This document shows, in pieces, positions 6,893 to 55,747 of a stretch of 64,000 nucleotides of DNA (position 1 is its first letter; each line of letters begins with the position of its first letter). The stretch is from an uncultured Gammaproteobacteria bacterium (lineage in GTDB: Bacteria > Patescibacteriota > Microgenomatia > UBA8517). Location of the stretch: NCBI GenBank assembly GCA_965231135.1, contig OZ246419.1, forward strand, positions 513,488 to 577,487, given 5' to 3'. A program made the position numbers and the translations under genes. Below the pieces are notes generated by a model. That model saw only the letters and a program-made list of their open reading frames with translations. It was not told where the DNA came from and did not search any database.

Positions 6893-8035
6893 ATGAAAAG
6901 TGAGAGAGAGAAAAAATTACAAAATGAATTATATAGACCGTCTCACGAGTTAGCGTGGATGTTAGGAATATTAGCAGGCGGTTCGTTTACACGCGGATAT
7001 GCTGTTGGTATAAGAGAAAATAATAAACAAGTTCTTGCACAAATCAATTCAATCGGAATTGGAATATTTGGAGTAACTCCGGAATTTGAATTTAAACGTT
7101 GGCATTTAAAATTTACAACTAGACAGGCAATAGGAGATTTTAGTAGATCTGAATGGCCTAATACTCTCACTTCTAATTATTCTTGGGTTTTAAATAAAGA
7201 TTATGCATCAGACTTTTTGTCCGGATATCTGGATAAAAATGGGGGTATTTATCCGAGAGCAAATGGGGGCTGTATTACCCAATTTAGTACTTCAAGAAAT
7301 GAATCTGCCGATATTCTTATTGATATGTTGAATACACTTAATATTAATGGAAGTAATAAAACTTATGAAAAAAGAAGGCAGGATAAACTTTCTGACGGTT
7401 TAACTGGAATTGCTTTAACTGCGATTTCAGATCAATTAGATTTATTTAACAATATATACACTTGTATTTCAGATAGACAACAAATCATTGATAATTTGAA
7501 ACAAACTTATGTAAATCTAAGATTAGTTGATCCAGAAAAAGTTGATATATATGAAAAAGTAATAAAGATTAGAAAAGAGCATCCAGAAATGGGCGCGGTG
7601 AAAATTAAAAAGTTTCTTTCTGATAAACAAAAGAATCGCCGCGATATTAGTACTTTTACCATACAAAAGTGGATTTATATTGATTCACGACCTGATAGAT
7701 TTCCAGTTAAGCGACTTACGAAGAAGTCTGATGGATTTGGAGGACTTAGCGATCTTCTTTTGTACAGGATTAATAAGGAGAGACGAAATGAAATAGCTGA
7801 AGTCCCATATATAATTCTAAGGCTGGGGGAAAGAATAAACAAAGAAGGAAACACAAACAATGAAGATTTGTTAAATATATTATATCGAGCTTGGACAATA
7901 CTTAAAGAATCGGAAAAAATTCCAAATTTGAGGCAACAGGTCTTATTTGCACTTTTATCTAAAGACTATAAAGAGTTGTTGCAAAAAATTTACCTGGTTG
8001 AACGAATTATTAAACAAAGGATAGATTACGAATAA
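6893..8035 (+). CDS. free-standing degenerate double-LAGLIDADG (homing-endonuclease-like) protein with C-terminal extension
   Basis: ELAWMLGILAGGSF and DFLSGYLDKNGG resemble the two LAGLIDADG motifs of a single-chain homing endonuclease, but the acidic catalytic residues are replaced. Confidence 0.4.
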   Translation: MKSEREKKLQNELYRPSHELAWMLGILAGGSFTRGYAVGIRENNKQVLAQINSIGIGIFGVTPEFEFKRWHLKFTTRQAIGDFSRSEWPNTLTSNYSWVLNKDYASDFLSGYLDKNGGIYPRANGGCITQFSTSRNESADILIDMLNTLNINGSNKTYEKRRQDKLSDGLTGIALTAISDQLDLFNNIYTCISDRQQIIDNLKQTYVNLRLVDPEKVDIYEKVIKIRKEHPEMGAVKIKKFLSDKQKNRRDISTFTIQKWIYIDSRPDRFPVKRLTKKSDGFGGLSDLLLYRINKERRNEIAEVPYIILRLGERINKEGNTNNEDLLNILYRAWTILKESEKIPNLRQQVLFALLSKDYKELLQKIYLVERIIKQRIDYE

Positions 8036-8834: not shown

Positions 8835-10370
8835 TCAAGGATTTATTGCAACCCATGGAGAGCTATCTGGATTTTCTCGGGAAGCTGCCGGGCTATCTCC
8901 CTGGGTCCACCATTTTGCTTGGTAAGGGACTCCATTTAAAATTACTTTAGAACCTGCTTCGTAAATTGCAGTTCCTGACCACTGGGGATAAGTTCCTGGA
9001 GCAACTGTTGGAACTGGAATTGGCGTTTCACCTGGTAAGACTGGACCAACTAATTGCCAAGGAGTCTGGAAAGATTGCAAAACTGGATTATCTGGAAGAT
9101 CGCCCTGGGTCCACCATTTTGCAACATAAACATTGTGATGCCAGACAATTTTTGTACCTTCTAAATATGTAGCGTCAGCTGACCAGATTTGGTAAGGACT
9201 TGTAGCTGGGTCGTCTGGGGTTTCAATATCTTTTTGGTCTGCGACAGTTGTTTTTGCAGCACTATCAGAAATTTTTCCAGATAAACCTGCCTGCAAAAGA
9301 TTGCTAAACGCAAACTTGTCTTCTTTGACTCCGCTACAGGAATCGGAAACGATTTGTGTATTTACATAATTTTCGCCACACTCGATATCACGATTAGCTG
9401 ACCACATAGAAAGCCTTGCAATCTGATTTTGCTCTATAAATGTATTTAAAACTTTTGCATCATCAAGAGTAAAGACCTCGTCTTCGGTATCATTTTGGCC
9501 AATCATTGGAGTTGCTCCAATTTTTCCCCAAATTGATGCACTATTTAAATGAATTCCTGCATTGTCATATAGAATTCCTAACTGCCTATGAGTATTATTT
9601 AAGGCATCAGTATTTGCTTCCTGCAAACTTCCATTTGCTGGAAGAGTTCCATAATCCATAGTCATTACATTTACTCCGGCCAAATCAACTCCGCTATTTA
9701 GCATTGTGGTGATTGCATCTGTTCCATCCTCGGTTAATCCGTTTGGAGCAACTGGCAAAGTTAACCAGACTGCTAAAGATTTATTTTGATTTTTCATGTC
9801 TTTTTGTAATTTGGCAATAGTGTCAGCTCTTCTTTTCATCGCGTCTTTATTTTGTAAATTACTTCCTTCGATATCTAAATCAATAGTGTCAACGCTGTAA
9901 TGGGCGATTACGCTTTTATAAGCATTATATAAATCGCTTTCTTTGGTACAGTTGATTGCAAGCTCGTCGTTTAACTGCCCTCCAAAAGAAATGGCGATAT
10001 TGCCGCCCAATTGTCTAAATCTTGCGATTCTTCGATCTAAATCTAATTTTGAATTTGCATCGTTAATTGTGTAGGCATTTCCCCATGAAGGAGTACAAGG
10101 ATTTGTGCTATCTGAAACAATAAAAGATAAAACAATATTTTTATTTATACTTGCATTGTCTGTCTGCTCAAAACTAAATGAAGGCGTAGCCGTAATATCA
10201 ACATACGGAGCAAACCAGGGGTTTGACTGAATGGTTGGTTTTTCTGCTTTGATTTTGTTCCACCCTAAAAATGCGCCGTAAGAAATTGCGCCTAATATTA
10301 ATAAGCCCAAAAATAATCTTGGAATTGATAATCTTTTACCTTCGTGCATCAGGATAAAACTCCTTTCCAA
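8835..10370 (-). CDS. GH18 family chitinase with two C-terminal CBM5/12 chitin-binding modules
   Basis: Catalytic DTIDLDIEG (DxDxDxE) and MDYG motifs. Two repeats YxxGxxV...Y.AKWWTQGD.P typical of CBM5/12. N-terminal TM/signal anchor. Confidence 0.8.
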   Translation of the reverse strand: MERSFILMHEGKRLSIPRLFLGLLILGAISYGAFLGWNKIKAEKPTIQSNPWFAPYVDITATPSFSFEQTDNASINKNIVLSFIVSDSTNPCTPSWGNAYTINDANSKLDLDRRIARFRQLGGNIAISFGGQLNDELAINCTKESDLYNAYKSVIAHYSVDTIDLDIEGSNLQNKDAMKRRADTIAKLQKDMKNQNKSLAVWLTLPVAPNGLTEDGTDAITTMLNSGVDLAGVNVMTMDYGTLPANGSLQEANTDALNNTHRQLGILYDNAGIHLNSASIWGKIGATPMIGQNDTEDEVFTLDDAKVLNTFIEQNQIARLSMWSANRDIECGENYVNTQIVSDSCSGVKEDKFAFSNLLQAGLSGKISDSAAKTTVADQKDIETPDDPATSPYQIWSADATYLEGTKIVWHHNVYVAKWWTQGDLPDNPVLQSFQTPWQLVGPVLPGETPIPVPTVAPGTYPQWSGTAIYEAGSKVILNGVPYQAKWWTQGDSPAASRENPDSSPWVAINP

Positions 10371-12475
10371 TCAATTTCTTGTTTTGGTTCAGTTTTTATT
10401 GGTTCTGCTTTTTCTTCTCTCTTGGCATCAACATACATCCAATTTGTTAAACCAAGATAAGTATCTGTTAGTAAATCAAAAAGACCAATGTATGCGACAA
10501 TTGCCCAAGTTGCGGCTAGTGCATTAAAAGCTGCAAAGGCTGCATTGCCCCAATTACTAATAAGAACATTTCTGTAAATTGTAAAAACTGAGAAAGCTAC
10601 AATTAAAACCGGGACAATAACATAAATCATTCCTGAAGCTGTTCTATTTTTAACCTTAGGAGTTCTAGCAAAAGGAATTTTCTTTCCTGTTACTGCCTGC
10701 TCAACTGATTTGATAACTCCAGCTAAATTAACTGGAAGCATAATTAAATTAAATCCGTAAATTCTAAAAATATCGCTATATTTATAGCCGCAATACTTCA
10801 AATCAGAAGCCTGCGCAATAAAATAGGGAAGCGCTGCAAGCAAAACTAACGGGCTAAGCAACCTTCCATCATAAGGATAGGCAAGAAGAAAAATTAAACC
10901 AAAAGTTGCCCAGGCAATTGAGGCAAGATAATTCATACGTAGCATTACTTCCAATTTTGATTTTTTATTTGCCTGCGCAAGTAATTTTGGCATGATAATT
11001 AAACCACCGTTTGCCCATCTACGGCGCTGAACAACTAATGAACCGAAATCAGGAGGAGTTGCGCTGTAGCTTAATCTTTCCGGATAATTTACAAGATCCC
11101 AACCTTTTGAAGTCATATCAATACTTGATTCAGTATCTTCTATAACTGTGCGGTCTTGGATGTATCTTTTGATTACATTTCCGTTTTCATTGTCATATTC
11201 GACAATGTCATCAAGAGCATTTTTTCTAATAATTGCATTTGCTCCAACCCAGAAAGTGGCTCCATACTGAGTCATTCCCTGATGCAAAATATGCTGAATG
11301 TCTGTAGTTGCACCAGCTAATCTTTCAATACGAGAAAAAGCGCCTCTAAAAGATGAATAAGGAGTTTGAGTGACTGCAACTTTGCTGTTTTGCGGCTGCA
11401 TTAAAAAGTAAACTAAACGTAAACAATATTCCGGAAGAAGAACAGAATCAGCATCAAGGGTTAATAAAAATTCACTATCGGGAATTAATTTTCCTTCAAA
11501 CTTTGTTCCCATTATTCCAATATAAGAATTTAAATTCATGGCCTTATTTGCTTCCTGTGAAAGAGTTGGGTGAAGTTTTCTTTCAAAAGAAGTTAATTTT
11601 CCTTCAAATATCCAGGTCAATCTTTCGTAAAGCTCGAAAACGCGATCGTATGAAAGCTTACCATCTTCCTGCATGGAAATTTCTAAAGCTTCTTCTATTT
11701 TAGTAAGGTCAACAGCTAATTTTCTTAAAACTTCGTTGGCAAAGAAAATATCGACATGATCTTCAATTTTTTCTTCATCTGCCATTTTATTAAGCCAGCG
11801 TGCTGCAAACCTGTATTCGTTGGCTAAATTTCTAATAGCTTTTTTATTGACAGTTTTATTTCTTTTAAACTCGTTGAATGACTTTTGAACTCGTTTGTAC
11901 GGTCCTGATAAGAGTTTTTCAATTTCAATTGGTAAGTTTCTTGCGTCATCTAAGCGTTTTGCATCTTCTGGATTTTTGGGATTTGGATTATTGTCGATTA
12001 ATAAAACTACATTTGTTTTTGGATATTCCTGCAAAACTGCAGATAAAAGAGTTTTACGAATGACAGATTTTTCTTCATTATAAGATGGGACTAAAACTGT
12101 AATTCCTGGTTTATTTTTACTAAAAAATTTATCAAGAATGCTTCTTGCAACTCTTTCGTGCTTTGCAAATCTTTTAAGTGCACCGTGGCGTTCTATAAGA
12201 TAGATTAAAGATGAGAAAGTAAGGAAAGTGACAACAAGGGCGTAGCTAAAAGCTTCCATAGTAAAGTGATAGCTTTGTGGCCCGTCGATAAGCTGCCTAA
12301 TGATAATTGAAAAAATATAAAGGACCCAAAAAACAACTGTTAAGACGATCGCGACACGGCTTAAAGTCAATTTAAAAGGGGATGGCTTGGCATGCAAAAA
12401 AGAAAGAGGGGTAGTATTTTTTTCTGCACCCCACTGATGTTTGCGGACAAGCTTTTTCTGAGACATAACCATCAA
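10349..12475 (-). CDS. processive family-2 glycosyltransferase, chitin-synthase-like (QTP / TED / QRRRW motifs)
   Basis: VLVPSYNEE, DADS, VTQTPYSSF, VIEDTES and QRRRWANG motifs. Multiple TM helices at both ends. About 150-aa coiled-coil insertion inside the GT-A domain. Confidence 0.75.
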   Translation of the reverse strand: MMVMSQKKLVRKHQWGAEKNTTPLSFLHAKPSPFKLTLSRVAIVLTVVFWVLYIFSIIIRQLIDGPQSYHFTMEAFSYALVVTFLTFSSLIYLIERHGALKRFAKHERVARSILDKFFSKNKPGITVLVPSYNEEKSVIRKTLLSAVLQEYPKTNVVLLIDNNPNPKNPEDAKRLDDARNLPIEIEKLLSGPYKRVQKSFNEFKRNKTVNKKAIRNLANEYRFAARWLNKMADEEKIEDHVDIFFANEVLRKLAVDLTKIEEALEISMQEDGKLSYDRVFELYERLTWIFEGKLTSFERKLHPTLSQEANKAMNLNSYIGIMGTKFEGKLIPDSEFLLTLDADSVLLPEYCLRLVYFLMQPQNSKVAVTQTPYSSFRGAFSRIERLAGATTDIQHILHQGMTQYGATFWVGANAIIRKNALDDIVEYDNENGNVIKRYIQDRTVIEDTESSIDMTSKGWDLVNYPERLSYSATPPDFGSLVVQRRRWANGGLIIMPKLLAQANKKSKLEVMLRMNYLASIAWATFGLIFLLAYPYDGRLLSPLVLLAALPYFIAQASDLKYCGYKYSDIFRIYGFNLIMLPVNLAGVIKSVEQAVTGKKIPFARTPKVKNRTASGMIYVIVPVLIVAFSVFTIYRNVLISNWGNAAFAAFNALAATWAIVAYIGLFDLLTDTYLGLTNWMYVDAKREEKAEPIKTEPKQEIDWKGVLS

Positions 12476-12506
12476 TTATAGGGTAGTTCTTGTGAAATTT
12501 CAAGAG

Positions 12507-14192
12507 CTAATAACAATAAAGAGTTGATGCAGAACTGGATACTAGCTTATTAATTTTTTTGCAGGGAAGGTTGGCCACTCTTTGAAATTTTATATTTTGT
12601 TCTGTTAGGAGTGTGTAGTTTGAGTAAAATTCCTGGGATTTTACTTTAAAGGTATTTCCCGAGTCTCTCATCTCTTCAAATTGTGTGTTTTCTGCCTGCA
12701 TTCCTAAAATATTAGTGTTTAACGCGGCAATGAAATATAGAGAATTATTGATAAATATAAGTGTGAAGATTGTAATTGAAAAGAATTTGGTAAATTTATT
12801 TTTATCAAAAGCAACAAGTATTGGAATCAATAAAACAAAAGGTATTAATTCAATTTGAGATACATAACGAAGAAGGTTTGGAGTTGGAACAACTAAACTT
12901 GCAATTGTAATAAGCGTAAAAGCAAAAAAAGATACATATATAGAATATTTTTGACGCATTGTATCTGCATTAAATGACATATATATAGTAAAAATAAAAC
13001 TTGCAAGAACTATTCCTGAGAAAAGAGGACCTGTTGCACCAACTCGATTATTGAAAAGTTTTGAAGCATCGTCAATCTCTTTAATACTAAAGGTAAAAGG
13101 TAATTTTAAATAAGCTCGATTCGAGATGCTTCTTGTATCGCCTGCACTTGCGACTTGCGATCTACCGAAAATTCCATAAACATAAAGAATGATTGGATTG
13201 GCGTATTTTAGATTTTGCGGAAGATTATTATATTTGACACTGCCGTTGAGAGCTGGAATGTTTGTTGGATAAAAAGGAGTTTGGTAAAAATAAATATTTT
13301 TAATATAAGGTATCCAGGAAAATATAAATGAAACAAGTATTACCAAAAAAATAAAAAGTTTTGCAGTTTTATTTAAGAAATATTCTTTGTTCATAAATCG
13401 ATTTATGACTATAACCATGAAGATTATGCCAAGAAGACCTGCAACTGGAAGCAAACTATATTTTGAACTTGCCAAAAATATTTCAGCGCTTATAAAGGAA
13501 ATTAAACTCCAATAGTTTTTCTTTTTAAGAATAAAGACAATAAGACTACTTATTGCAATTATTGTAATCTCGTAGGCAAGACCATCCTGCATAAAACTAA
13601 ATTGTTGATTTATAAATAATGGCTGAAAACAAACCAGAAATGAAAGAAACACCGATAGAAAAGTTTTAATTTTAATTTTTTTAAGTAAGATAAATGTAAA
13701 GAGCATTGCGATTAGCAAAAAGATAAAATTAATTATTTTTGCGGAATTAACTGACCCGACAACGTTGTAAATACTTGCTTCGATTTCCCAAGACATTGTT
13801 GGATATCCCTCGGCAAAAACTTGACTTGGAAGTCTAACTGGAAAATTTATAGTTTTTTGCCAAACCGGATTCCAACCTTTGGAGAGAGCAATTACTGCTG
13901 TTTGATGATATCCTTGACCATCCCAGCTTAAATCATATGTTTTTCCAATTAAAAGAGATAATCCAAGAAAAATAAACGAAGTAATTACAAATATTAATAG
14001 AGGTGTAAAGTTTTTTGTTTTATTCTTTTGTGTAAGAAAATAAATCGATAATATGAATATGTAAAAGAAAAAACTTATTGGAAGAGTATAAGATGAAATG
14101 GGGATTTTTAAGAAAAATCCGAGGCGGATGAGCAAGACCTCAAAAATAAAAAATTCAAAAAAAAGGAAAGTAAATTTCTCAATTTTCTTCAT
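12507..14192 (-). CDS. polytopic integral membrane protein (GT-C-like or polysaccharide-associated, function unknown)
   Basis: 561 aa with more than 10 predicted TM helices. Sits between the two processive GT2 genes. Confidence 0.5.
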   Translation of the reverse strand: MKKIEKFTFLFFEFFIFEVLLIRLGFFLKIPISSYTLPISFFFYIFILSIYFLTQKNKTKNFTPLLIFVITSFIFLGLSLLIGKTYDLSWDGQGYHQTAVIALSKGWNPVWQKTINFPVRLPSQVFAEGYPTMSWEIEASIYNVVGSVNSAKIINFIFLLIAMLFTFILLKKIKIKTFLSVFLSFLVCFQPLFINQQFSFMQDGLAYEITIIAISSLIVFILKKKNYWSLISFISAEIFLASSKYSLLPVAGLLGIIFMVIVINRFMNKEYFLNKTAKLFIFLVILVSFIFSWIPYIKNIYFYQTPFYPTNIPALNGSVKYNNLPQNLKYANPIILYVYGIFGRSQVASAGDTRSISNRAYLKLPFTFSIKEIDDASKLFNNRVGATGPLFSGIVLASFIFTIYMSFNADTMRQKYSIYVSFFAFTLITIASLVVPTPNLLRYVSQIELIPFVLLIPILVAFDKNKFTKFFSITIFTLIFINNSLYFIAALNTNILGMQAENTQFEEMRDSGNTFKVKSQEFYSNYTLLTEQNIKFQRVANLPCKKINKLVSSSASTLYCY

Positions 14193-14277
14193 GAGACTTG
14201 ACTATAAAATCCTTTAATACACAATTCTTACAAATTATTGTAATAAATTTGTAAACTTCAGCTTATTCTTAAGCTTC

Positions 14278-16281
14278 ATGTGGGAAAGTGATCTTAAATT
14301 AGATAAATATATTTATGTTCGCGATAACCCGCTTTTAATAAAAACACTTGGTCTTGTAGGTCTTGTGACAACATTAATTATGGCCTACGGGTTTTGGAAA
14401 TTTTTTCATGTAAGTATTTTTTATTTAATTTTTTTTGGACCAATTGTTTTTATTTTTATTGTAAATAAAGTTTTAAGATATGCGATACAGTTGTTTTATC
14501 CAAAGTTTGACATAGAGCGTCATGAAGAATTCGTCTCAAACTTTTGGGCAACTCATGAAGAACCGTCTGTCGATATTTTTTTGCCTTGGGCAGGCGAAGA
14601 CTTAAAAATACACGAAGAAGTTGTAAAAGCTGTTAATAATTTAAATTATAAAAATTTTAAAGTATACATGCTTGATGATGGAGGATTGCCAGAACATAAA
14701 AGTCTTGCTGATAAGTATAAATTTAATCATTTACAGCGACCAAATAGGGGTGAATTTAAAAAATCTGGAAATTTACAATATGGGTACGATCATTCTTCTG
14801 GAGAGTTTGTATTTATACTTGATGCAGATTTTATTCCAACACGTGATAGTTTACATGACCTAATTCCTTATATCGCAAGCGATAATCAAATGGGAATTTT
14901 ACAAACTCCTCAGTATTTTGAGCAAACAAAAAAAGTGCATAAAAGGTCTGCAATAGAGTTTGGGGGAGGAAATATTGTTGAGGAGTTTTATAAAATTAAT
15001 TTGCCATGCCGAGATGTATTTAGAGCTTCAATGTGTGTTGGTACTTCAGCAATTTACAGGCGAACTGCAATTATGAAACTTGAAGGAACTCCAAAAGTGC
15101 ATGCAAGCGAAGACCTTGCGACTGGACTTCTTGTTACACAACATGGATATTATGTTAAATATTTGCCACTTATTTGCAGCATGGGTACGAGCCCTGAAAC
15201 TTTTCAAGGATATTTTAAACAACATCAAAGATGGTGTAGCGGAAATATTGTTTTTGCAAAATATTGGCCTCAGGCAAGACTTAATCCTATTGCAAGAATT
15301 ATTTATTTATCAAACCCCAGTTATTATTTGGCCGAAGCTTTGGGGATATTTTTCTCTTTTCAGTTTTTAGCACTTTTATATTTCAATGGAAATACATTAA
15401 ACATTCGTAATGTCATCTATTTTTTGCCTTATCTTTTTTACAGCCGAGTTTTGGTTCCGCTTTCTAAAACTAATAAAAATAAACTAGGGACAAGACTTGC
15501 AGCGCTTTCGAATGCGTATACATATATTTATACATACATTCACATGATTGTTTCTGGTGTTCCAAAATGGCATCCGACTGGAGTGAAAATTACAAAAATG
15601 CACAAAGATTTTTTGCATGCAATAGATATTGGAATAGTTTTGTCTTCCGTTTTTATAATCTCTTTTTTATTTGTAATATTTAAAAGACCTCAAATACTTG
15701 GAAACTATAATGCATATTTGATTTTGGGATGGGCTGTTTATTCGGCATTTTGGCACGGAGTTTTTTTGTTTCTTGCTTCAAGATTTATTTTGCAAAACAC
15801 TATTTCTGATGCAAACAGCCCTTTCAAAAAGATTTATCTTTATACAAAAAGCCATTTGTCCATTTTGTTAATAATTATTCTTTTTGGGGCACTTATTTTT
15901 AATGCAACTATTGCTTTTAAAAATCCAGATGCACCAACAGTTCTTGCATTGAACGAGCTGACTGGTAGAGATACAACTAGAATTGCTTTAAATACTTCTT
16001 CTCCGACTTCAAACCAAATTGTTGTTGCTCCAAATCAGACACCTGCGACTTTTAAATATAAAGCGCAAAAGGGAGATTCACTTACAAAATTGGCTGTTAA
16101 CGCAATAAGAGATTATGAGAAAACAAACAAAATGAGTTTAACGGCTAAGCAAGAAAATTTTGCTGCGGCGAAAATTGTCGCAAATATAACTAAGAAAGGA
16201 ATATTAAAAATTGGAGATGAAATTGATTTTGATCCAGTACTTCTTAATAAAGAAATTACTGTGGCAGAGAATATTCGCTAG
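14278..16281 (+). CDS. processive family-2 glycosyltransferase (cellulose/chitin synthase-like) with C-terminal LysM-like domain
   Basis: YMLDDGG, ILDADF, QHQRWCSGN (QxxRW) motifs. N- and C-terminal TM helices. C-terminal YKAQKGDSLTKLA resembles a LysM motif. Confidence 0.7.
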   Translation: MWESDLKLDKYIYVRDNPLLIKTLGLVGLVTTLIMAYGFWKFFHVSIFYLIFFGPIVFIFIVNKVLRYAIQLFYPKFDIERHEEFVSNFWATHEEPSVDIFLPWAGEDLKIHEEVVKAVNNLNYKNFKVYMLDDGGLPEHKSLADKYKFNHLQRPNRGEFKKSGNLQYGYDHSSGEFVFILDADFIPTRDSLHDLIPYIASDNQMGILQTPQYFEQTKKVHKRSAIEFGGGNIVEEFYKINLPCRDVFRASMCVGTSAIYRRTAIMKLEGTPKVHASEDLATGLLVTQHGYYVKYLPLICSMGTSPETFQGYFKQHQRWCSGNIVFAKYWPQARLNPIARIIYLSNPSYYLAEALGIFFSFQFLALLYFNGNTLNIRNVIYFLPYLFYSRVLVPLSKTNKNKLGTRLAALSNAYTYIYTYIHMIVSGVPKWHPTGVKITKMHKDFLHAIDIGIVLSSVFIISFLFVIFKRPQILGNYNAYLILGWAVYSAFWHGVFLFLASRFILQNTISDANSPFKKIYLYTKSHLSILLIIILFGALIFNATIAFKNPDAPTVLALNELTGRDTTRIALNTSSPTSNQIVVAPNQTPATFKYKAQKGDSLTKLAVNAIRDYEKTNKMSLTAKQENFAAAKIVANITKKGILKIGDEIDFDPVLLNKEITVAENIR

Positions 16282-17260
16282 AATAAATTGTATTATTTAA
16301 GCCAGATTTTACAGAGTTAATATAATTAGTTGATTTTTCAATCCTCCAGTCAACTTCACCAAGATTAGATTTGTCTTCGTTAAAGAAGATAATTGCTTTG
16401 ATTTGTGGAAATGTGTCTGGAAGTTCTGTAAGTAATTGTGAAAGCCAAGTCGCTTTGTAATCATTTGGCACAGAATTTGTTTCTGATAACATAATTGGTT
16501 TTGCAGTTATGCTAGTTAATTCCTGATATGATTGCTCAAATACATTTTTAAAGGGAGTTTTTCCCCAATTGTAGCCATCAAGCGCAACCCAATCTACAAA
16601 GCCATCTCCTGGATAAAGCTCCTTATAGGGAATTGTGTTTTGTCCTGTTGTATTGAAAGATAAAACCCATTGGACGTTAATTGCACCGTTATTTTTTAAA
16701 ACATTATGAAAATGAATCCATGCATTTTTGAAATCATTGTTTGTGCTATTTAGCAAAGGAATGCTCCAATACATTTGGGGGAGATTCATTTCCCAAGCAA
16801 AACGAAGGAGGATCGGCTTATTGTAACTTTTTAAGTTGTCTGCAATTTCTTTTAGAAATTGGTCGCAAGAACCACTGGCAATTTTTTGATATAGATTATC
16901 TTCTTTTTTTCCTGGACAGCCAGCAAAAAAATAGGGATTTGAACTTACCATTGGTACCCAACCATGTGAAGAGATCTGGTTTAAATTATTTATAAATTCG
17001 GGGCTTGCTAAATATTCCCAACCGTCGTAAAAATTAGCGATCGCCATTTTTTTACCGAGGGTATTTTGAAAATTAAAAAGAGGACTAATATTTAATTTTT
17101 GATTTTCCCAAAAACCTCCAACCCAGGCACCGACATAAATTTGTTTTTCGTTTTTTACCATATTTTGTTCTGGAACTGATTGTGTTTTTTGTTTTTCCTT
17201 AAATATGAAAAACAAGCTGATTACGGCAAAAAATAAAAGTGCATAAAAAATATTTTTCAT
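16256..17260 (-). CDS. secreted GH26-like glycoside hydrolase (mannanase/beta-glycanase family)
   Basis: Signal/TM at N-terminus. LLRFAWEMN matches the GH26 RFxHEMN catalytic-acid region. TIM-barrel-like pattern. Confidence 0.5.
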   Translation of the reverse strand: MKNIFYALLFFAVISLFFIFKEKQKTQSVPEQNMVKNEKQIYVGAWVGGFWENQKLNISPLFNFQNTLGKKMAIANFYDGWEYLASPEFINNLNQISSHGWVPMVSSNPYFFAGCPGKKEDNLYQKIASGSCDQFLKEIADNLKSYNKPILLRFAWEMNLPQMYWSIPLLNSTNNDFKNAWIHFHNVLKNNGAINVQWVLSFNTTGQNTIPYKELYPGDGFVDWVALDGYNWGKTPFKNVFEQSYQELTSITAKPIMLSETNSVPNDYKATWLSQLLTELPDTFPQIKAIIFFNEDKSNLGEVDWRIEKSTNYINSVKSGLNNTIYSSEYSLPQ

Positions 17261-17332
17261 ATTAACTTATATTAGAATATCATTTCTAATATTTTATTTG
17301 ATAAGACGATGAGGAAACCGCTAAGAACTAGA

Positions 17333-17542
17333 TTATTTTTGAGAGACTTGGCTGGAAACAGCTTGAACTGTTGTCTGATTGCCACCGTTTTGGTTTTGAA
17401 CTACAACCATCAAAGTAAAAAGTGCCATAAAAAGAAGACCAAATAAAACTACATAAGTAATTATTTTACTTTGCATCACTTCTTTTTCGTGATGAGCTAA
17501 AGTTTTGTGGTGTTTCTTTGCTTTTGCCATTTGTAATATCAT
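17333..17542 (-). CDS. small membrane protein
   Basis: 69 aa with a single TM helix. Confidence 0.3.
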   Translation of the reverse strand: MILQMAKAKKHHKTLAHHEKEVMQSKIITYVVLFGLLFMALFTLMVVVQNQNGGNQTTVQAVSSQVSQK

Positions 17543-17559
17543 ATTAGTAATATAGCTTT

Positions 17560-18204
17560 ATGGATGTCAAGAGGTATATTTTATTTGCAGCTGGAATCTT
17601 ATTTGGATTAAGCGTTGTCTTTATTTATAAAATAATTACAACTCACCCTGCAGAGCCAATCGGAAATATTGTGCAAAATATTGCAAAGCCTGACTTTGAT
17701 ATTTCCAAAGCTCCAAGCCAGTCTATTCAAGGAAAAATTTTATCTATGAGCGGAAATATTTTTTGGGAAAGCAGAACTGCAACAGAATCTTCACAAATAA
17801 GTTATCCGCAGATACTTCAACAGGGAGAAAGTTTGCAAACAGGAGATAACGGAAATGCGCAAGTTGAATTTCCAAATGAAGCAGAAATAATAATGGATGC
17901 AAAAACAGAAATTGATTTTATACAAACCCTGCCAACAGAGTTTGTTGTAAATATTGCAAGCGGATCGGCGACATTTACAAAATTAAACGACCCTCTGGAA
18001 ATAAGAGCTGGGCATTTATTGACAAAAATAAATAGCGGACAAACAAAAATTGGAATTGATGAAACAGGGAATATAAATTTGAATATCATAAGCGGATCAA
18101 TAACCAGCGCTTATAATGATCAAAATCTTGTTAGTCATGAAGAAGATTTTAATTCTCCACAAAGATTTACATTTGACGATTTGACAAGGAAATTTGTTTT
18201 TTGA
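17560..18204 (+). CDS. membrane-anchored beta-sandwich protein (FecR-like fold, function unknown)
   Basis: N-terminal TM helix, then beta-rich domain. Confidence 0.4.
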   Translation: MDVKRYILFAAGILFGLSVVFIYKIITTHPAEPIGNIVQNIAKPDFDISKAPSQSIQGKILSMSGNIFWESRTATESSQISYPQILQQGESLQTGDNGNAQVEFPNEAEIIMDAKTEIDFIQTLPTEFVVNIASGSATFTKLNDPLEIRAGHLLTKINSGQTKIGIDETGNINLNIISGSITSAYNDQNLVSHEEDFNSPQRFTFDDLTRKFVF

Positions 18205-18216
18205 TATCGTTAACTA

Positions 18217-18669
18217 ATGCAAAACGACTTTACACCTGACGCAACTCCAGATATTCATATTGGAACTGAGACAACTCCTGCGACAAATGGTACAAATCCA
18301 ACAATTCCGCCAGCCACTCCTCAGCCAACTACAACACCAATTAGCCCTGAACCAAGCCCGATAACTCCTATGCCTATGCCAAATGATTCGAAGAAAAAAA
18401 CAATGATGATGGTTTTAATTATTGTGATAATTATTGCTTTGCTTGCAATCGGCGGAGCAGTTTATTTTTTGCTTCTTAAAAAGCCAGCAACTGCAATTCC
18501 TACTTCAACTCCACAGGCAACTATGACTACTGCACCAACTACATCGCCAATATCTTCTTCAACGCCAGTACTGACACCTACACCAACAAGCACGGATAGC
18601 GCAACGATAGACATTAACTTGAATACAACTGCGACAACAAGCGCTACTCCTTCAGCAACTCCTCAATAG
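18217..18669 (+). CDS. Pro/Thr-rich single-pass membrane protein
   Basis: Central TM helix flanked by PT-rich low-complexity tails. Confidence 0.4.
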   Translation: MQNDFTPDATPDIHIGTETTPATNGTNPTIPPATPQPTTTPISPEPSPITPMPMPNDSKKKTMMMVLIIVIIIALLAIGGAVYFLLLKKPATAIPTSTPQATMTTAPTTSPISSSTPVLTPTPTSTDSATIDINLNTTATTSATPSATPQ

Positions 18670-19882
18670 GATTGAAGATATTTCCACTTTGATTTTCATA
18701 ACCTAAGGCCCAAATTGCTAACCCCCCCAGATTATTGCCTTTGATAAAGTTTATTTTGGAGCTAACACTCTTCATATCAGGGTAAAAATATTGCTGAAAA
18801 GTATTTGAATCGGTATTTTTATAAATTAAATAACTTTCCTGAGCAACATTATCAAACTGAGCACTGCAAGTTGCACAATTACTTAATAAATTTTCCAGAT
18901 CTTTATTATCTTCTATAAATGCTGTGGTTGGAATTACAGCAGAACGAGGAAAATTATCTATAGTTTCCCATGAATATCCATAAAATGGCATTCCTAATAA
19001 AATATTTTTAGGGTCAATTAATTTACTTGCAGCATTTATTGCACTTTGGGTATCAAATTCACTTTCGCTTCCAGCTCCATATAAAGGAGCGACAGGGCCT
19101 GTCACCAACGAGCTTGGGGAATGAAAGTCGTAGGCCATGACAACAATATAATCAAGATAATTTATGATATTTTTGGGAACAGAAAGATGATCATCGCGAA
19201 CTAAATCAACAGGAATAATATCGTCGCTTAACGTAAGACTTGGAATTTTGGATTTAATTTGATCGTGAATTTCTTTAATAAATAATTGGTAATTTAACTG
19301 CGCTGAGGGAGAGGCAGTATCCGTGCCTTCAATATCCATATTAAGATCCGAGAAACCGTATTGAGAAATAATTGGCGTAAGGTCATTTACCAAATTATCT
19401 GCGTGATTTACAGGATCAGAAATTAATTCATTGATTGAATCCTGATCTCCGTCAAAAATTGTTAGAGAGAGTTTGATATTATTTTGCCTTGCATTATCAA
19501 AAAATGGATCTAATTTGCCGGAAGTTAGAGCTAAATATCCAGGCTCTGATTCTCCAGGCATTGTGAATTTTAGAATTGAACCATCTGTGTCTGGCGTCAA
19601 ACTAAAATAATCTAAATTGGTTATTTTGCCAGCATAATTTTCACTTGCACTACTTAATAACCAATAAGGCAAAAATCCCAACACTTCCTTATTTGTTTTT
19701 TTTGAAGTTGAGACTGTTGTAGAAACTGGATTTTTTGAAGATGGCTTTTGAATTATATTGGTTAGTAAAAAGCCAAGACTCAAGCCAAAAACTAAACCTA
19801 AAATAATTACTGAAAGATTTTTAAATACTTGCATAAATACAGTATAATATATTTCGGATTTTATATGGTTGATTATGAACAA
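18644..19882 (-). CDS. GH18-family glycosyl hydrolase (chitinase-like / YaaH-like)
   Basis: LNMDIEG (DxxDxDxE-like) and MAYDFH motifs. N-terminal TM anchor. Confidence 0.6.
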   Translation of the reverse strand: MFIINHIKSEIYYTVFMQVFKNLSVIILGLVFGLSLGFLLTNIIQKPSSKNPVSTTVSTSKKTNKEVLGFLPYWLLSSASENYAGKITNLDYFSLTPDTDGSILKFTMPGESEPGYLALTSGKLDPFFDNARQNNIKLSLTIFDGDQDSINELISDPVNHADNLVNDLTPIISQYGFSDLNMDIEGTDTASPSAQLNYQLFIKEIHDQIKSKIPSLTLSDDIIPVDLVRDDHLSVPKNIINYLDYIVVMAYDFHSPSSLVTGPVAPLYGAGSESEFDTQSAINAASKLIDPKNILLGMPFYGYSWETIDNFPRSAVIPTTAFIEDNKDLENLLSNCATCSAQFDNVAQESYLIYKNTDSNTFQQYFYPDMKSVSSKINFIKGNNLGGLAIWALGYENQSGNIFNPIEELLKE

Positions 19883-20896
19883 AATATTGTAACAGTTGGA
19901 GGAGGAAGTGGTTTGCCTGTTGTCAACGAAGCACTTTTAAGAACAGCAAAAGTTGACTTCATAACTGCAATTGTTACTCCGTTTGACAACGGCGGATCTA
20001 CTCGCATGGACAGATTAGATTCATATGGAACACAAATTGGTTATGCGGATGCAATTCGAGTATTATTTTCTCTAATTGACCCTGAACAGTTAGATCCAAA
20101 CAAGGTTGCTACTCTCAAAAGATGGTTTACTCAAAGAGATGAAAAAGATAGAGTACCAGCAAGAGGAATAGTTCACAATTCGTTTACAGCTGATAATGGA
20201 ATTTCTCAAATTGAAAGAGATTTTTGCAGCCTTGGTGTAAATTTAAAAGGAGAAGTGCTATTTTCCAGTACAAAATCGAGCCAAATTGTGTTTACGACAG
20301 AAGACAATGATTATTTTGAAGGAGAGGATATGCTTGATATTCGCTCGACAACACCAGATACCGTTCGAAATATGAAGCTTAAGCCGGAAATTGATGCATT
20401 TCCCAAAGCTATTGAGGCTATTAAAAAAGCGAAATTAATAATTCTTTCTTGTGGCTCTGTACATGGCTCAGTTTTGTGTAATTTTTTGCCAACTGGAATG
20501 AAAGAAGCAATGGAAGAAACTGCTGCAAAAGTTTATTGGGTTACTAATTTAACAAGTACAAAAAATGAAACAGATGAAGCAACTCCAATTTCAATGGTAA
20601 GACTTGCTGAAAAATATACTGGAATTCAAATTTCAGGCCTAATTGTCCCACAAATGACACGTGAACAGTTTAATGAAGAACACCCTGAAGTGGCTGACAG
20701 ATATAAAAAACGTGAATCCTCTCATTTTTTAGGATGGAGCGAAGACCAACTTGATGAAGCGCATAGTGCTGGTATTGAAATTGTTAAGCATGATGCAATA
20801 AAAATCATTAGGATTAATCTTCCCGAAGATGCTTATAAGTTAATAGTTCGCCATGATCCTGTCAAACTTGCGCAATCTTTAAAATCTATAGTTTAA
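19865..20896 (+). CDS. YvcK/CofD-family protein (gluconeogenesis factor / 2-phospho-L-lactate transferase-like)
   Basis: VGGGSGLP...FDNGGST motif. Start chosen at MVDYEQN (19865) to avoid the overlap of the tracked ORF start at 19829. Confidence 0.6.
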   Translation: MVDYEQNIVTVGGGSGLPVVNEALLRTAKVDFITAIVTPFDNGGSTRMDRLDSYGTQIGYADAIRVLFSLIDPEQLDPNKVATLKRWFTQRDEKDRVPARGIVHNSFTADNGISQIERDFCSLGVNLKGEVLFSSTKSSQIVFTTEDNDYFEGEDMLDIRSTTPDTVRNMKLKPEIDAFPKAIEAIKKAKLIILSCGSVHGSVLCNFLPTGMKEAMEETAAKVYWVTNLTSTKNETDEATPISMVRLAEKYTGIQISGLIVPQMTREQFNEEHPEVADRYKKRESSHFLGWSEDQLDEAHSAGIEIVKHDAIKIIRINLPEDAYKLIVRHDPVKLAQSLKSIV

Positions 20897-20980: not shown

Positions 20981-21619
20981 ATGTTATCAAGTTATTTGCT
21001 AACTTTAGCCTTAGCTTTTGCTAATCCGACACCTTTTGAAGCCGGAAGCACTTCTAGTGCCCAAACAACCATTGCAAGCCATGTTATGCCTATGACTGAC
21101 AGATATGCAGTCCAAAGCGTAAATACTGTATTTAAAGATAACATCTTGCTTACTCTTCGTTATATGGACGGAGAAATTAAATCAAAAGCTGATATTGATT
21201 GGAATAAAGTTGAATCTGATTATCATTATTCATTTACTTTACAGCCTGGCCAAGAATTTGCTTTCCATGACAAAGTTGCGAAGCAATATGATAATGGGCA
21301 AATTGTTCAGGAAACAAACGCACATTTTGATTTTGATGACGGATTTAAGTCTGATGGATATCTAACTGGAGACGGCGTTTGCCATCTTGCTTCTATTATT
21401 GATTGGGTTGCAAAAGACGCCAATCTACAGGTGACCGCGCCAACAAACCATAATTTTGCCAACATTCCTGATGTGCCTAAAGAATACGGAGTTGCTATTT
21501 ATGAAGGTCCAGATGGAGGGGAAATGACAAATTTGTATATTACAAATAACAAAAATGTTCCTGTAACTTTCAAATTTGATTATACAAATAATAATTTAAC
21601 CGTGAGCGTCAGTGAATGA
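20981..21619 (+). CDS. VanW-like domain protein
   Basis: GDGVCHLASIIDWVA...NHNF...VAIY...VPVTFKF matches the VanW core (GGGVCQ.S.T.Y...NHS). Confidence 0.5.
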   Translation: MLSSYLLTLALAFANPTPFEAGSTSSAQTTIASHVMPMTDRYAVQSVNTVFKDNILLTLRYMDGEIKSKADIDWNKVESDYHYSFTLQPGQEFAFHDKVAKQYDNGQIVQETNAHFDFDDGFKSDGYLTGDGVCHLASIIDWVAKDANLQVTAPTNHNFANIPDVPKEYGVAIYEGPDGGEMTNLYITNNKNVPVTFKFDYTNNNLTVSVSE

Positions 21620-21640: not shown

Positions 21641-21716
21641 GGTGGCTGTAGCTCAGTTGGTTAGAGCGCGTGCCTGTGGAGCATGAGGTCGGCAGTTCGA
21701 GACTGCTCAGCCACCC
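21641..21716 (+). tRNA. tRNA-His(GTG)
   Basis: Cloverleaf with extra 5' G-1 pairing C73. Anticodon loop CTGTGGA. T-arm GGCAG-TTCGAGA-CTGCT. Confidence 0.85.
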
Positions 21717-23211
21717 ATAACGATTTTTTAGTACCTTCCAACCTCTTAATTATCTCAAAAGATTGACTCAAATACTCTGTTCTAAAACCTGGATATTGAT
21801 AAATTATATTCTGCGGGAATATCGAACTAACGAGCGTCTTTTTCTCAAATAAGTCTTTGCTTTGTGTCCAAGCTTTGTCCAAATTCCATAAAAAGTTATT
21901 CATAAAATTGACTAAAATATCTATGTCTATTTTTTGCAGTTTTGCCTCGCTTTTAATAGTCTTTTTTACTAAGATTTGATCTTCAATTAACTCAAGTTGT
22001 TCTTTGAAAGCTTCATCTGAATAAATTCCCTGTAAGTGCTTTTGTCCGAGTTTCTTTCTTACTTCATATAAGTCGCTTAGTTCTCTGTCTACACCTTTTT
22101 GTTTATTTATTAAGTGAGAATATCTATCTTGCCATTTTTCTTTTACCATTGCAGTAAATAACTGAACAAACTTTTTCTTTGGTTTTACTTTGGTCATAAA
22201 CTGAATAAATTCTTTCTCAAAGTTTTCTTTGGGAACAGAAGGGCTAAAATGAGATTTTTCTAAACAATAATAATAAGGGTATTTGCGTTTTGAAAAGGCA
22301 GCTGTCATTAACTTCCCGCACTTGTCGCAAATGACATGACGCCTTAATGGGAAACTTTCGTTTAATCTGTTATATTTCATGCCGACAGTTCGGGAGCGTT
22401 TATCTATAATCCCCTGAACTTTATAGAATAAATCTTCACTTATCATAGCTTCATGATTGCCGATTTTATCGGTACCCCAATCTTTATTTGCCACATAGCC
22501 GGCATAGAATTTATTTCTAAATAGTCTTTGAGTTTGTTGTTTTTTTGTGATGGGGATAAGTCTGTTATTTTTGTATTTGACTCTAATATTTAGCTTTCGC
22601 ATGACTGGAATAATCGAATCAAGTGTGTAAATTCCCGTTGCCATTTCTTCCCATGCTTTTTTTACTGCCTCAAATTGTTCAGAGTCACGCTCGATAATTT
22701 GTTTCTCGTCTTTTGTTATATTTATGTAGCCGACTGGTGCTTTGCCGTTGGCCCAGCCTGATTCTAATCGTTTTCTCATTCCGTCTTTTGACCTTAAACT
22801 TTTTGTTGCATTATCCAGTTTTGCACTTGCTGCGAGAAGCGTTTCAAGAAATTCACCAGTTGGACTATTTTCGACAGGTTCTGTAACAGATATAATTCTG
22901 ATTCCATATTTTGAGAGCTGTCTTTTGATTGCCAGAAAATCATAAGTATCGCGGGATATTCGATCTATCTTGTAAATAAATACAGCGGATACTTCTTTTT
23001 GATTTTTTCTGCAATCTTCTAACAGCCTTATAAGTTGTGGGCGATTTGTAGTCTTTGCACTTACCCCTTCTTCTCTATAAATTCCATTTTCCACTATCTT
23101 AAATTCTTGTCTTTCAGCTTCTCGTAAACAATAATCTTGTTGATTATCAAGGCTAAAATTAGAAACCTGTTCTTCAGAACTAACTCGCAAATATGCGTAA
23201 GCTTTTTTCAT
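21661..23211 (-). CDS. large serine recombinase (resolvase/invertase N-domain + recombinase domain + zinc ribbon)
   Basis: YLRVSSEEQ catalytic Ser motif and DRISRD. C-terminal CDKCG...YYYC zinc-ribbon. The 3' end overlaps tRNA-His on the opposite strand. Confidence 0.8.
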   Translation of the reverse strand: MKKAYAYLRVSSEEQVSNFSLDNQQDYCLREAERQEFKIVENGIYREEGVSAKTTNRPQLIRLLEDCRKNQKEVSAVFIYKIDRISRDTYDFLAIKRQLSKYGIRIISVTEPVENSPTGEFLETLLAASAKLDNATKSLRSKDGMRKRLESGWANGKAPVGYINITKDEKQIIERDSEQFEAVKKAWEEMATGIYTLDSIIPVMRKLNIRVKYKNNRLIPITKKQQTQRLFRNKFYAGYVANKDWGTDKIGNHEAMISEDLFYKVQGIIDKRSRTVGMKYNRLNESFPLRRHVICDKCGKLMTAAFSKRKYPYYYCLEKSHFSPSVPKENFEKEFIQFMTKVKPKKKFVQLFTAMVKEKWQDRYSHLINKQKGVDRELSDLYEVRKKLGQKHLQGIYSDEAFKEQLELIEDQILVKKTIKSEAKLQKIDIDILVNFMNNFLWNLDKAWTQSKDLFEKKTLVSSIFPQNIIYQYPGFRTEYLSQSFEIIKRLEGTKKSLWVAEQSRTADLMLHRHAL

Positions 23212-44556: not shown

Positions 44557-45345
44557 ATGAATATAAATTATAGGAAAGCATTAATTATCGAAAATACATT
44601 TATCGCCCTCATAATTCTTCTTGTTGGGTTTGTAAGGGTTATTAATTCCGTTCCTGCAATAAAGAATGCCCTAGTAATGGCTACAACTCATCAGCCAGAG
44701 AGGTTTACAGAACTTTATTTCGAAAATCATACATCACTTTCCATTAACAGTTTTGAGTTTACTGTCCACAATTTGGAGGATAGGGAAATGACATACCCAT
44801 ACGAAGTTTATGTACAAAGCTCTGATGCTAAGCAACAGCAAATGATTGATAAAGGAGAATTTATCTTAAAACAAGGAGACTATAAAACTATTAGCGAATC
44901 TTTCGTACCTGGCTATAGTTTTATTGGACAGAAGGCAGACGTAATAGTAAATCTTGTTAATAAAGACCAGAAAATATCGTTTTGGACAACACCCACAAAC
45001 ACAAAAACCAGCATTCCTCAAGAACAGAAAGAGAACCTTCAATCAACAGGACTGTATTTTACGAGCGAATTACCTTTAAGAGTTTTACAAGGCCAACCCA
45101 TAAATTTTTCATTCGGTGTACAAAATTTAAAATATTCAGATCATATTTATCCATATACAGTCTATATAGAAGAAAATGGTAGAGATACGCAGATTATGCA
45201 GGGTGAAGCGTATGTAAAACAAAATTCTAGCACGACAATTTCTGTCTCCTATCAATTAGCAACTTTAATCAGAAATGCCAAGGTATACGTTCGATTAACC
45301 GGAGAAAATCAATATATTTATTTCCAAATGAAAGGTGCTCAATGA
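44557..45345 (+). CDS. membrane-anchored hypothetical protein, first gene of glycan cluster
   Basis: N-terminal TM helix. 4-bp overlap with the downstream GT2. Confidence 0.4.
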   Translation: MNINYRKALIIENTFIALIILLVGFVRVINSVPAIKNALVMATTHQPERFTELYFENHTSLSINSFEFTVHNLEDREMTYPYEVYVQSSDAKQQQMIDKGEFILKQGDYKTISESFVPGYSFIGQKADVIVNLVNKDQKISFWTTPTNTKTSIPQEQKENLQSTGLYFTSELPLRVLQGQPINFSFGVQNLKYSDHIYPYTVYIEENGRDTQIMQGEAYVKQNSSTTISVSYQLATLIRNAKVYVRLTGENQYIYFQMKGAQ

Positions 45346-46091
45346 AAAAAATTACCGTATTGATACCATGCTACAACGAAGAAAAAGGTGTTCAAAAGGT
45401 AATTAGAGGTATCCCTGTCGAGAAACTTCGCAGATTAGGTTTCAAGACTGAGGTTGTTGTGATTGATAACAATTCTACGGATAAAACATCTAGCGTGGCA
45501 AAGAAGCTGGGTGCGACTGTTTTATTTGAACCCAAAAAAGGAAAAGGTAACGCGATGAAGCTTGGTTTTTCTTATATAAACCTTGACACAGACTACATCA
45601 TCATGCTCGATGGGGACGATACATATAAGGGTTATGAAATTCCCCGGCTCGTTGAGCCGCTTGACAGTGGATTTTGCGATGTTGTGGTCGGCTCAAGGCT
45701 ATTAGGAAAAATAAACAAAGGTGCCTTTAAGTTTAGCAATAGAATCGTCAATTGGGGATATGCTTTTATGGTTAGGCATTTTTATCGTGCTAATGTTACA
45801 GATGTTTTAAGCGGTTTCTTTGCCTGGCGAAAGGAAGCGCTTGATGATTTAAAAATACATTTAAATTCTGACGGTTTCGCTATCGAGATGGAGATGATTA
45901 CAAAAATGGTTAAGATGGGCCACTCTGTTTATTCTGTTCCTATTACTTACGATGTCCGTGAAGGGGAATCTAAGATCAGTTCATTCGCGGACGGTTTTAG
46001 AATCTCAAAAATGTTTCTTAGAAATTTTACCTGGAAGCCAACTCAACCTGAAAAGCAAAAGATTGAAATAGATATTGAACAAGCAATATGA
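45342..46091 (+). CDS. GT2-family glycosyltransferase (Dpm1/GtrB-like polyprenyl-phosphate sugar transferase)
   Basis: VLIPCYNEE, VIDNNSTD, DGDDTY motifs. Confidence 0.7.
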   Translation: MKKITVLIPCYNEEKGVQKVIRGIPVEKLRRLGFKTEVVVIDNNSTDKTSSVAKKLGATVLFEPKKGKGNAMKLGFSYINLDTDYIIMLDGDDTYKGYEIPRLVEPLDSGFCDVVVGSRLLGKINKGAFKFSNRIVNWGYAFMVRHFYRANVTDVLSGFFAWRKEALDDLKIHLNSDGFAIEMEMITKMVKMGHSVYSVPITYDVREGESKISSFADGFRISKMFLRNFTWKPTQPEKQKIEIDIEQAI

Positions 46092-55672: not shown

Positions 55673-55747
55673 ATGAGTACAAGACGTTAATCCTAATACT
55701 CATGTGTTTTTTAATATTAATATTTGAAGCAGCTAATCTCCGAAGTG

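Follow-up and report, generated by a model that had tools for sequence, protein, structure and literature searches.

We analysed a 64,000-nucleotide stretch of contig OZ246419.1 (hereafter, the window) from an uncultured Patescibacteria (CPR) bacterium and focused on a putative glycan-synthesis cassette comprising a membrane protein, a family 2 glycosyltransferase (GT2) and a family 26 glycoside hydrolase (GH26). The window has a G+C content of ~33%, and the closest named relatives of its proteins come from candidate division WWE3/Patescibacteria metagenome-assembled genomes (MAGs). The first gene of the cassette (12507–14192, minus strand) encodes a protein of 561 amino acids (aa) that belongs to no Pfam family and that we assign below to the GT-C-fold enzymes. 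The second (14278–16281, plus strand) encodes a 667-aa GT2 matching Pfam PF13632, PF00535, PF13641 and PF13506, as expected from an initial annotation of the region that had called it a GT2. The third (16256–17260, minus strand) encodes a 334-aa protein, whose earlier designation as GH26-like was borne out by a Pfam score of 28.7 bits against a gathering score of 20.2 bits. The divergent GT-C and GT2 genes are separated by an intergenic region of 85 base pairs (bp; 14193–14277), which presumably holds the promoters of both. GT2 and GH26 are convergent and share 26 bp at their 3' ends (16256–16281); the corresponding overlaps in relatives measured 12 bp (L001, 12029–12040) and 57 bp (L007, 7642–7698); no terminator-like site was found between the two genes.

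All six open reading frames (ORFs) that the initial annotation had described between 12507 and 19882 were recovered at the same positions, and the motifs it had quoted from them (DDGG, DAD, QHQRW, RFAWEMN, MDIEG and MAYDFH) were all present in the translations. The predicted ORFs are real genes, with homologues reaching E values as low as 1e-264.

The conserved three-gene unit

Gene order was compared across 15 independent loci from relatives (WWE3, SR1 and other Patescibacteria) that had enough flanking sequence. The GT-C, GT2 and GH26 genes were all present in 12 of the 15 loci and GT2 plus GH26 in two more, so that GH26 adjoined GT2 in 14 of 15. The arrangement seen in the window, with GT-C divergent from GT2 and GH26 convergent with it, occurred in L001/L002, L003, L004, L007 (identical to L010), L008, L009, L011, L012 and L013. 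The order GH26, GT-C, GT2 was colinear in L006 (from SR1), L016 and L089. Loci L005 and L090 carried GH26 and GT2 with no adjoining A3-type GT-C gene, although L090 had PMT_2-type GT-C genes nearby, and L091 (33% identity) carried the GT2 only. The remaining neighbors were unrelated housekeeping genes in every relatives' locus. Because only GT-C, GT2 and GH26 traveled together while the other neighbors differed, we concluded that the conserved unit is these three genes, spanning 12507–17260 (~4.8 kb), and not a 12-kb region.

The initial annotation had proposed a glycan synthesis, binding and hydrolysis neighborhood of roughly 12 kb that also took in the genes on either side. Downstream of the cassette these encode a 214-aa FecR-like protein (17560–18204, plus strand; Pfam 24.5 bits), a 150-aa Thr/Pro-rich protein with one transmembrane (TM) helix and no significant Pfam family (18217–18669, plus strand), and a 412-aa GH18 (18644–19882, minus strand), for which the earlier family call agreed with a Pfam score of 116 bits. 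Upstream lie minus-strand genes for the 708-aa first GT2 (10349–12475), for a GH18 with two CBM5/12 modules whose GH18 score was just under the Pfam threshold (8835–10370), and for a 194-aa protein. Searches with phmmer for homologues of both GH18 proteins, the first GT2, and the FecR-like and Thr/Pro-rich proteins found none in the loci scanned, except that the first GT2 weakly matched the synthase of L016 itself. Likewise, the Pfam gene tables of L089–L091 contained no GH18, FecR-like or first-GT2 counterparts. Synteny in relatives thus upheld the linkage of GT-C, GT2 and GH26, and on the same grounds the 12-kb region was rejected as a single unit; the first GT2/GH18-CBM5 operon, and likewise the genes for the GH18, FecR-like and Thr/Pro-rich proteins, are no more than local neighbors. 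The possibility that the two GT2 proteins are recent paralogues was rejected in view of an identity of 21% over 227 aa and of the far lower scores of the first GT2 on the BcsA and CelA models; they are distinct families.

These local neighbors bear on a reading in which the region makes chitin or another polymer of N-acetylglucosamine (GlcNAc), with the 667-aa GT2 producing the polymer, a LysM tail on that GT2 binding either this product or peptidoglycan, and turnover of the polymer falling to the two GH18 enzymes. Two GH18 genes and CBM5/12 modules do lie within 8 kb in the window, the GH18 at 18644–19882 retains the D-x-E catalytic pair and matched chitinases at E 1e-16, and on the minus strand the GT-C gene directly adjoins the first GT2/GH18 operon. 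However, neither a GH18 nor a first-GT2 gene was found beside the cassette in the relatives' loci examined, where the hydrolase that was kept (14 of 15 loci) is GH26. Together with the evidence from the synthase, its tail and the hydrolase given below, this makes a GlcNAc polymer rather improbable as the product.

Between the stop of the GT-C gene and the first GT2/GH18-CBM5 operon, which share a strand, there is a 31-bp gap (12475–12507). This gap contains the region's best sigma-70-like site (TTGAAA-17-TATAAT, 11 of 12 positions), whose −10 element lies directly against the TTG given as the start codon of the 708-aa GT2; because of this position, the true start of that protein may be a downstream ATG. 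A promoter and terminator scan of the window from 8 to 21 kb returned fewer sites than were found in shuffled sequence and was uninformative.

The synthase and its LysM-related tail

The best NCBIfam model for the 667-aa GT2 was CelA (137 bits, E 6e-40, residues 23–489), compared with 58 bits for PgaC and 37 bits (E 1.6e-9) for NodC, an order that argues against synthesis of a GlcNAc polymer; all of these scores were far under the equivalog cut-offs (for CelA, 137 versus 699 bits). The only sequence matches in the PDB were BcsA chains (E 5e-24), and several homologues of the GT2 carry precomputed matches to Cellulose_synt (PF03552). The DDG (133–135), DAD (182–184), ED (278–279) and QHQRW (315–319) residues all aligned to BcsA, the last of these (15220–15234, plus strand) with QRIRW of the E. 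coli protein. QxxRW is the motif by which processive GT2 synthases are recognized. Across 27 aligned homologues (alignment A1) the motifs DDG, KxGN, DAD, QTPQ, CVGTS, ED and QxxRW were invariant, including Q315, R318 and W319. The protein falls outside BcsA proper (TIGR03030/PRK11498): its score was below the cut-off, Pfam detected no PilZ domain in it, and no BcsB accompanies it, since none of the neighbors in relatives' loci had a BcsB-family Pfam match. We concluded that the 667-aa GT2 is a predicted BcsA-like processive synthase.

Alignment-averaged hydropathy and the positive-inside rule placed two TM helices before the GT domain and five after it. Four of the latter correspond to TM5–8 of BcsA, and the helices flanking the GT domain match the channel helices of BcsA-type synthases, as judged from alignment hydropathy and the CelA alignment over residues 23–489. 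The extra, seventh helix (residues ~523–548; 15844–15921, plus strand) has no BcsA counterpart and was present in A1 even in homologues that lack the tail described below. The loops at 397–444 and 499–518 are rich in K/R. Based on hydropathy, the positive-inside rule and homology to BcsA, the N-terminus is predicted to lie inside and the C-terminus outside the cell; because the GT domain must be cytoplasmic, the C-terminal 120 residues would then be extracellular.

The cassette shares much with the bacterial cellulose synthase BcsA and its endoglucanase BcsZ, and with the clostridial CcsA/CcsZ, which likewise comprise a membrane-integrated processive GT2 with DDG, DxD, (T)ED, QxxRW and channel helices, and a gene for a secreted or anchored endoglycanase beside the synthase gene. 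In contrast to BcsA, the Patescibacteria synthase lacks PilZ and has no BcsB or BcsC partner, has two instead of four N-terminal TM helices, and adds the C-terminal TM helix and the predicted extracellular tail. The hydrolase also differs from BcsZ in being GH26 rather than GH8 or GH5, and the usual third partner is a GT-C protein. Some members of the synthase family contain two GT2 modules in one polypeptide of 1050–1200 aa (L016:1190–4801, P0110 and P0298). Locus L016 is a second cassette of GH26, GT2 and GT-C in the same MAG as L012, and the two-module proteins of L016 and P0298 retain the tail.

This tail begins with a Pro/Thr/Ser-rich linker (residues ~549–589; 15922–16044, plus strand; A1 columns 570–690) that varies widely in length and sequence among homologues, and ends with a domain of ~78 aa (residues 590–667; 16045–16278, plus strand). 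Its family pattern extends over ~75 residues, Y-x-Y-x-V-x-x-GDS-x-x-x-LA ... L-x-x-x-Q-x-x-YA ... G-x-x-I-x-F. The initial annotation had described the C-terminus as a LysM-like, GlcNAc-polymer-binding motif. Pfam LysM (PF01476) did not match the window's tail even when the tail was searched alone at E ≤ 10, which counts against the GlcNAc-polymer reading, and it gave sub-threshold matches in 6 of 24 tail family members (best E 0.008). A profile of the 24 tails was then compared with the PDB, where 10 of 11 matches were LysM proteins (among them LytE, Ecp6, MltD LysM, AtlA, CERK1 and YaaH), covering only the first 16–18 residues. With hhalign, the tail aligned to a reference set of nine LysM sequences, each verified by Pfam, at 94.6% probability over 17 columns. 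When 211 sequences of the tail domain were used, the alignment to LysM reached 91.8% (E 7e-7) and covered 46 of 49 LysM columns, compared with 0.9% for a reversed-LysM control.

The AlphaFold2 (AF2) model of the tail was well scored (predicted local distance difference test, pLDDT, 94) and showed elements in the order beta-alpha-alpha-beta-alpha. Foldseek with this model listed no LysM among its top 50 matches, none of which was significant. The likeness to PF01476 lies in the beta-alpha-alpha-beta order, in the start ('Y-x-V-x-x-GD-S/T-L-x-x-L/I-A') and end ('L-x-x-G-x-x-I/V') of the sequence pattern, and in an extracytoplasmic, modular and often tandem occurrence. The tail domain differs from it in length (~75 versus ~44 aa), in that both helices are 7–8 residues longer and an extra C-terminal helix follows, and in the loss of the conserved LysM Asn. 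Thus, the LysM assignment failed by Pfam and Foldseek and survived as a remote relationship by profile-profile comparison: the tail belongs to an unnamed family of LysM-related domains and is not a canonical LysM. Canonical LysM domains bind GlcNAc glycans, and the relationship can to that extent be counted in favor of a GlcNAc polymer; against it, the loops that form the LysM GlcNAc groove are replaced by the lengthened helices in the tail domain.

The same domain is widespread outside the synthases. Searched against 1.84 billion representative proteins, the tail profile had 1166 matches at E ≤ 1e-3, of which 157 reached E ≤ 1e-10. Among the 150 top-ranking matches listed, most were small proteins (~90–340 aa) with one or two full-length copies; an N-terminal hydrophobic anchor was present in 115 of 129 small carriers, and no Pfam model covered the domain in them. 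These small carriers (P0186–P0333) have low-complexity linkers and often two tandem copies. One stand-alone member (L088:5001–5441) lies divergently beside a Wzz/Bac_transf/EpsG/GT4/GT2 polysaccharide cluster, a single case whose neighborhood fits a glycan-related role of the domain.

The hydrolase, the GT-C-fold protein and the candidate product

Among solved structures, the closest relative of the GH26 protein was the GH26 domain of endoglucanase H from C. thermocellum (E 3e-25 over the whole catalytic domain, residues 42–315), which we take to be the lichenase CtLic26A, a beta-1,3-1,4-glucanase (PDB 2bv9, 2cip). The bit score to this domain was 92, compared with ≤30 to other GH26 structures in the PDB, and the next structures from outside endoglucanase H had E values of 3.5e-6 or worse. 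Residues E157 and E260 aligned to the acid/base and nucleophile of CtLic26A and were invariant in 11 orthologues, all of which have an N-terminal hydrophobic anchor; both catalytic Glu residues and the Pfam score thus place the protein in GH26. Whereas CtLic26A is cellulosomal, the Patescibacteria protein has a single domain with an N-terminal hydrophobic anchor and is encoded with a synthase, and because of this genetic association we read its predicted role as biosynthetic rather than cellulosomal.

Most characterised GH26 enzymes are beta-mannanases, and this supports a second alternative, in which the cassette makes beta-mannan or glucomannan, the GT2 acting like plant CslA and the GH26 as a mannanase. 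The Cellulose_synt matches among the GT2 homologues are consistent with it, as that family includes Csl proteins. Two observations make such a product quite unlikely. The GH26 is ~60 bits closer to CtLic26A than to other GH26 proteins in the PDB, and in one lineage a beta-1,3-glucanase joins the cassette: in L089 the three genes are followed on the same strand by a gene for a 687-aa GH81 (L089:6641–8704), confirmed against structures of GH81 endo-beta-1,3-glucanases at E 4e-62. Nine contigs carry the L089-type synthase. The GH81 partner, like the lichenase-like GH26 and the closer match to BcsA than to NodC or PgaC, also contradicts the GlcNAc polymer implied by the initial annotation.

Because a lichenase-like GH26, the GH81 of L089 and a BcsA-like synthase occur together, the most likely product is a beta-glucan, rather than chitin, in which beta-1,3 linkages are joined probably by beta-1,4 ones; the GH81 points to a beta-1,3-linked polymer of mixed-linkage or curdlan-like type. 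Such a product would have precedent in BgsA of Sinorhizobium meliloti and RiGT2 of Romboutsia ilealis, BcsA-like, PilZ-less GT2 enzymes whose product is beta-(1,3;1,4)-glucan (PMC10374906). We liken the Patescibacteria synthase to these enzymes by description and not by sequence; their product type is compatible with the lichenase-like GH26 and the GH81 of L089. BgsA is paired with BgsB, whereas the Patescibacteria synthase is paired with GT-C and GH26.

For the 561-aa protein, the initial annotation had claimed a polytopic protein with more than 10 TM helices, in line with the ~13 predicted here, and had missed what the model indicates is a GT-C-fold glycosyltransferase. Searches of Pfam and NCBIfam gave no match, a profile search of PDB sequences likewise gave nothing, and 65 homologues were all unnamed or 'hypothetical' Patescibacteria/WWE3 proteins, none with a Pfam family. 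The identity of the protein emerged from fold search alone. Its AF2 model had a pLDDT of 93 and a predicted template modelling score (pTM) of 0.94, and the top 19 Foldseek matches in the PDB were all GT-C enzymes (ALG12, STT3, ArnT, Pmt1/2/4, ALG9, DPY19 and ALG3), with EmbA, EmbB and AglB further down the list. Probabilities for the top 19 ranged from 0.82 to 1.0 (0.99–1.0 for ALG12, STT3, ArnT and Pmt) and template modelling scores (TM-scores) from 0.23 to 0.48.

Residues invariant in the family include D87, D91, N108, P109, K152, D203, K244, N299 and R442, of which D87 and D91, part of an invariant motif (YDxSWDGQGYH), were unchanged in 34 sequences. These two residues lie in the first large loop (83–147), which is predicted to be outside the cell, and match the conserved acidic residues of GT-C enzymes, which supports the assignment. 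Based on this model, we regard the 561-aa protein as a GT-C-fold enzyme of a family without a Pfam or NCBIfam model. Three-component systems of extracytoplasmic glycosylation, namely GtrA/B/V, CsbB/YfhO, the GT136 system (PMC11127046) and the mycobacterial Emb/Aft enzymes, share with it the GT-C fold and the conserved acidic residues of an external loop. In contrast to these systems, the catalytic loop of the 561-aa protein follows TM3 rather than TM1, and the cassette partner is a BcsA-type synthase with no lipid-sugar synthase or flippase.

Distant homologues of the GT-C protein (22–28% identity) occur in Brevibacillus, Acidobacteriota, Planctomycetota, Bacteroidota, cyanobacteria and Clostridia; no BcsA-like GT2 or GH26 gene was adjacent to any of them. 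In Brevibacillus fortis (NZ_CP176370.1; L053:2904–6422) the homologue is the last gene of an operon of UbiA prenyltransferase, an SMR/EamA-like small transporter, a divergent PAP2 phosphatase and GT-C, a layout thus present in cultured bacteria. By analogy, the resemblance of this layout to the polyprenyl-phosphate pentofuranose glycosylation systems that have been described (PMC11127046) supports a lipid-linked donor for the GT-C family. A candidate for the donor synthase is a 249-aa GT2 from another part of the window (45342–46091), for which the best NCBIfam matches were AglJ, dolichyl-phosphate hexose transferase and PpgS.

Because GT-C enzymes use lipid-linked donors (PMC11127046), the cassette could instead be a lipid-carrier system resembling the Gtr or oligosaccharyltransferase systems, in which the GT2, rather than making a free polymer, charges or extends and exports a polyprenyl-phosphate-linked glucan that the GT-C protein then passes to an acceptor (wall, protein or lipid). 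The tight linkage of GT-C to GT2 in relatives and the lack of a separate flippase in the cassette would suit such a system. However, the GT2 has the full BcsA architecture, with QxxRW and channel helices, and differs from the GtrB/Dpm1 type, which is separately represented at 45342–46091; moreover, the GH26 and GT2 pairs of L005 and L090 do without an A3-type GT-C. We therefore hold a lipid-carrier system to be unlikely.

In our preferred reading, to which we give somewhat better than even chances, the three-gene Patescibacteria cassette makes and processes an extracellular beta-glucan. The cytoplasmic GT-A domain of the synthase would polymerise a sugar, most likely glucose from uridine diphosphate glucose (UDP-glucose), and thread the glucan chain through the protein's own TM channel. 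The seventh TM helix and the flexible linker would display the LysM-related domain outside the cell, where its probable role is to hold on to the growing glycan or to fix the synthase to the wall. For the anchored GH26, the most likely task is trimming or release of the polymer, the part that BcsZ plays for cellulose. The GT-C protein would most likely act on the outer face, adding branches to the glucan or linking it to an acceptor, with a polyprenyl-phosphate sugar as donor. We hold more tentatively, at odds below even, to the fuller proposal that these parts form an undescribed synthase-dependent pathway. In it, the BcsA-type synthase would work together with a GT-C enzyme from a new family, which, coupled to it on the outer face of the membrane, would branch the nascent beta-glucan or anchor it to the envelope, with processing by the lichenase-like GH26.

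Several observations weigh against the preferred reading. In the synthase, the 'FFCGS' motif of BcsA is replaced by 'MCVGTS', and GT2 motifs do not tell sugar specificity. The predominance of mannanases in GH26 keeps a beta-mannan product in play, and the GH81 link comes from one lineage. The TM-scores of the GT-C protein to solved structures are modest (0.3–0.48), the cassette encodes no lipid-sugar synthase or flippase that could supply its donor, and the GT-C protein may be dispensable, because L005 and L090 lack an adjacent A3-type GT-C gene. A local functional link of the GT-C gene with the first GT2/GH18-CBM5 operon is also possible, because the two are on the same strand and only 31 bp apart. 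Lastly, tail-less synthases (P0030, P0034 and that of SR1) are found in complete three-gene cassettes, and the LysM-related domain is for that reason not essential to the cassette.

Other features of the window, novelty and meaning

A third glycan cluster in the window, of Wzx/Wzy type, extends over 44557–54372 (plus strand). It encodes a 262-aa ORF, the AglJ/Dpm1-like GT2 at 45342–46091, a GT4, a 755-aa double-GT4 protein, a DUF2206 membrane protein and an 883-aa flippase-pyruvyl-transferase fusion. The cluster may be an island, because it is followed by a tyrosine integrase gene (54638–55672, minus strand) beside tRNA-Val (55747–55820). Closer to the cassette, a large serine recombinase gene (21661–23211, minus strand) overlaps tRNA-His (21642–21716, plus strand) with its 3' end, which suggests an element integrated at this tRNA just downstream of the glycan region. 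The GH18 gene at 18644–19882 is followed by genes for a CofD/YvcK-like protein (19829–20896) and a VanW-like protein (20981–21619); both families are linked to the cell envelope, and neither is conserved beside the cassette. On the other side, a 380-aa ORF (6893–8035, plus strand) had no Pfam or NCBIfam match and contains putative LAGLIDADG-like motifs recognized by eye (e.g., LSGYLDKNGG).

Keyword searches of the open literature returned no description of a BcsA-type synthase coupled to GT-C or to GH26, and none of cellulose-synthase-like systems in Patescibacteria. Each component of the cassette belongs to a known superfamily. What appears to be new is the conserved three-gene combination, the seventh TM helix with its external LysM-derived domain, and two families that lack models. 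The latter are now delimited as the GT-C family and a LysM-related domain of ~75 aa found in more than 1000 representative proteins, neither of which has a Pfam model.

Patescibacteria have reduced genomes, and their envelopes are little known. With its persistence in WWE3, SR1 and further lineages, the cassette is a candidate source of a surface beta-glucan for envelope structure or host attachment. If the link between the GT-C protein and the synthase is functional, it would extend the known ways in which synthase-dependent polymers are modified. If the coupled pathway proposed above is true, the synthase tail would provide the first functional context for a large, unnamed family of LysM-derived glycan-binding domains, and the polymer could serve as a principal glycan of the envelope or for attachment in these small-genome, possibly symbiotic Patescibacteria.

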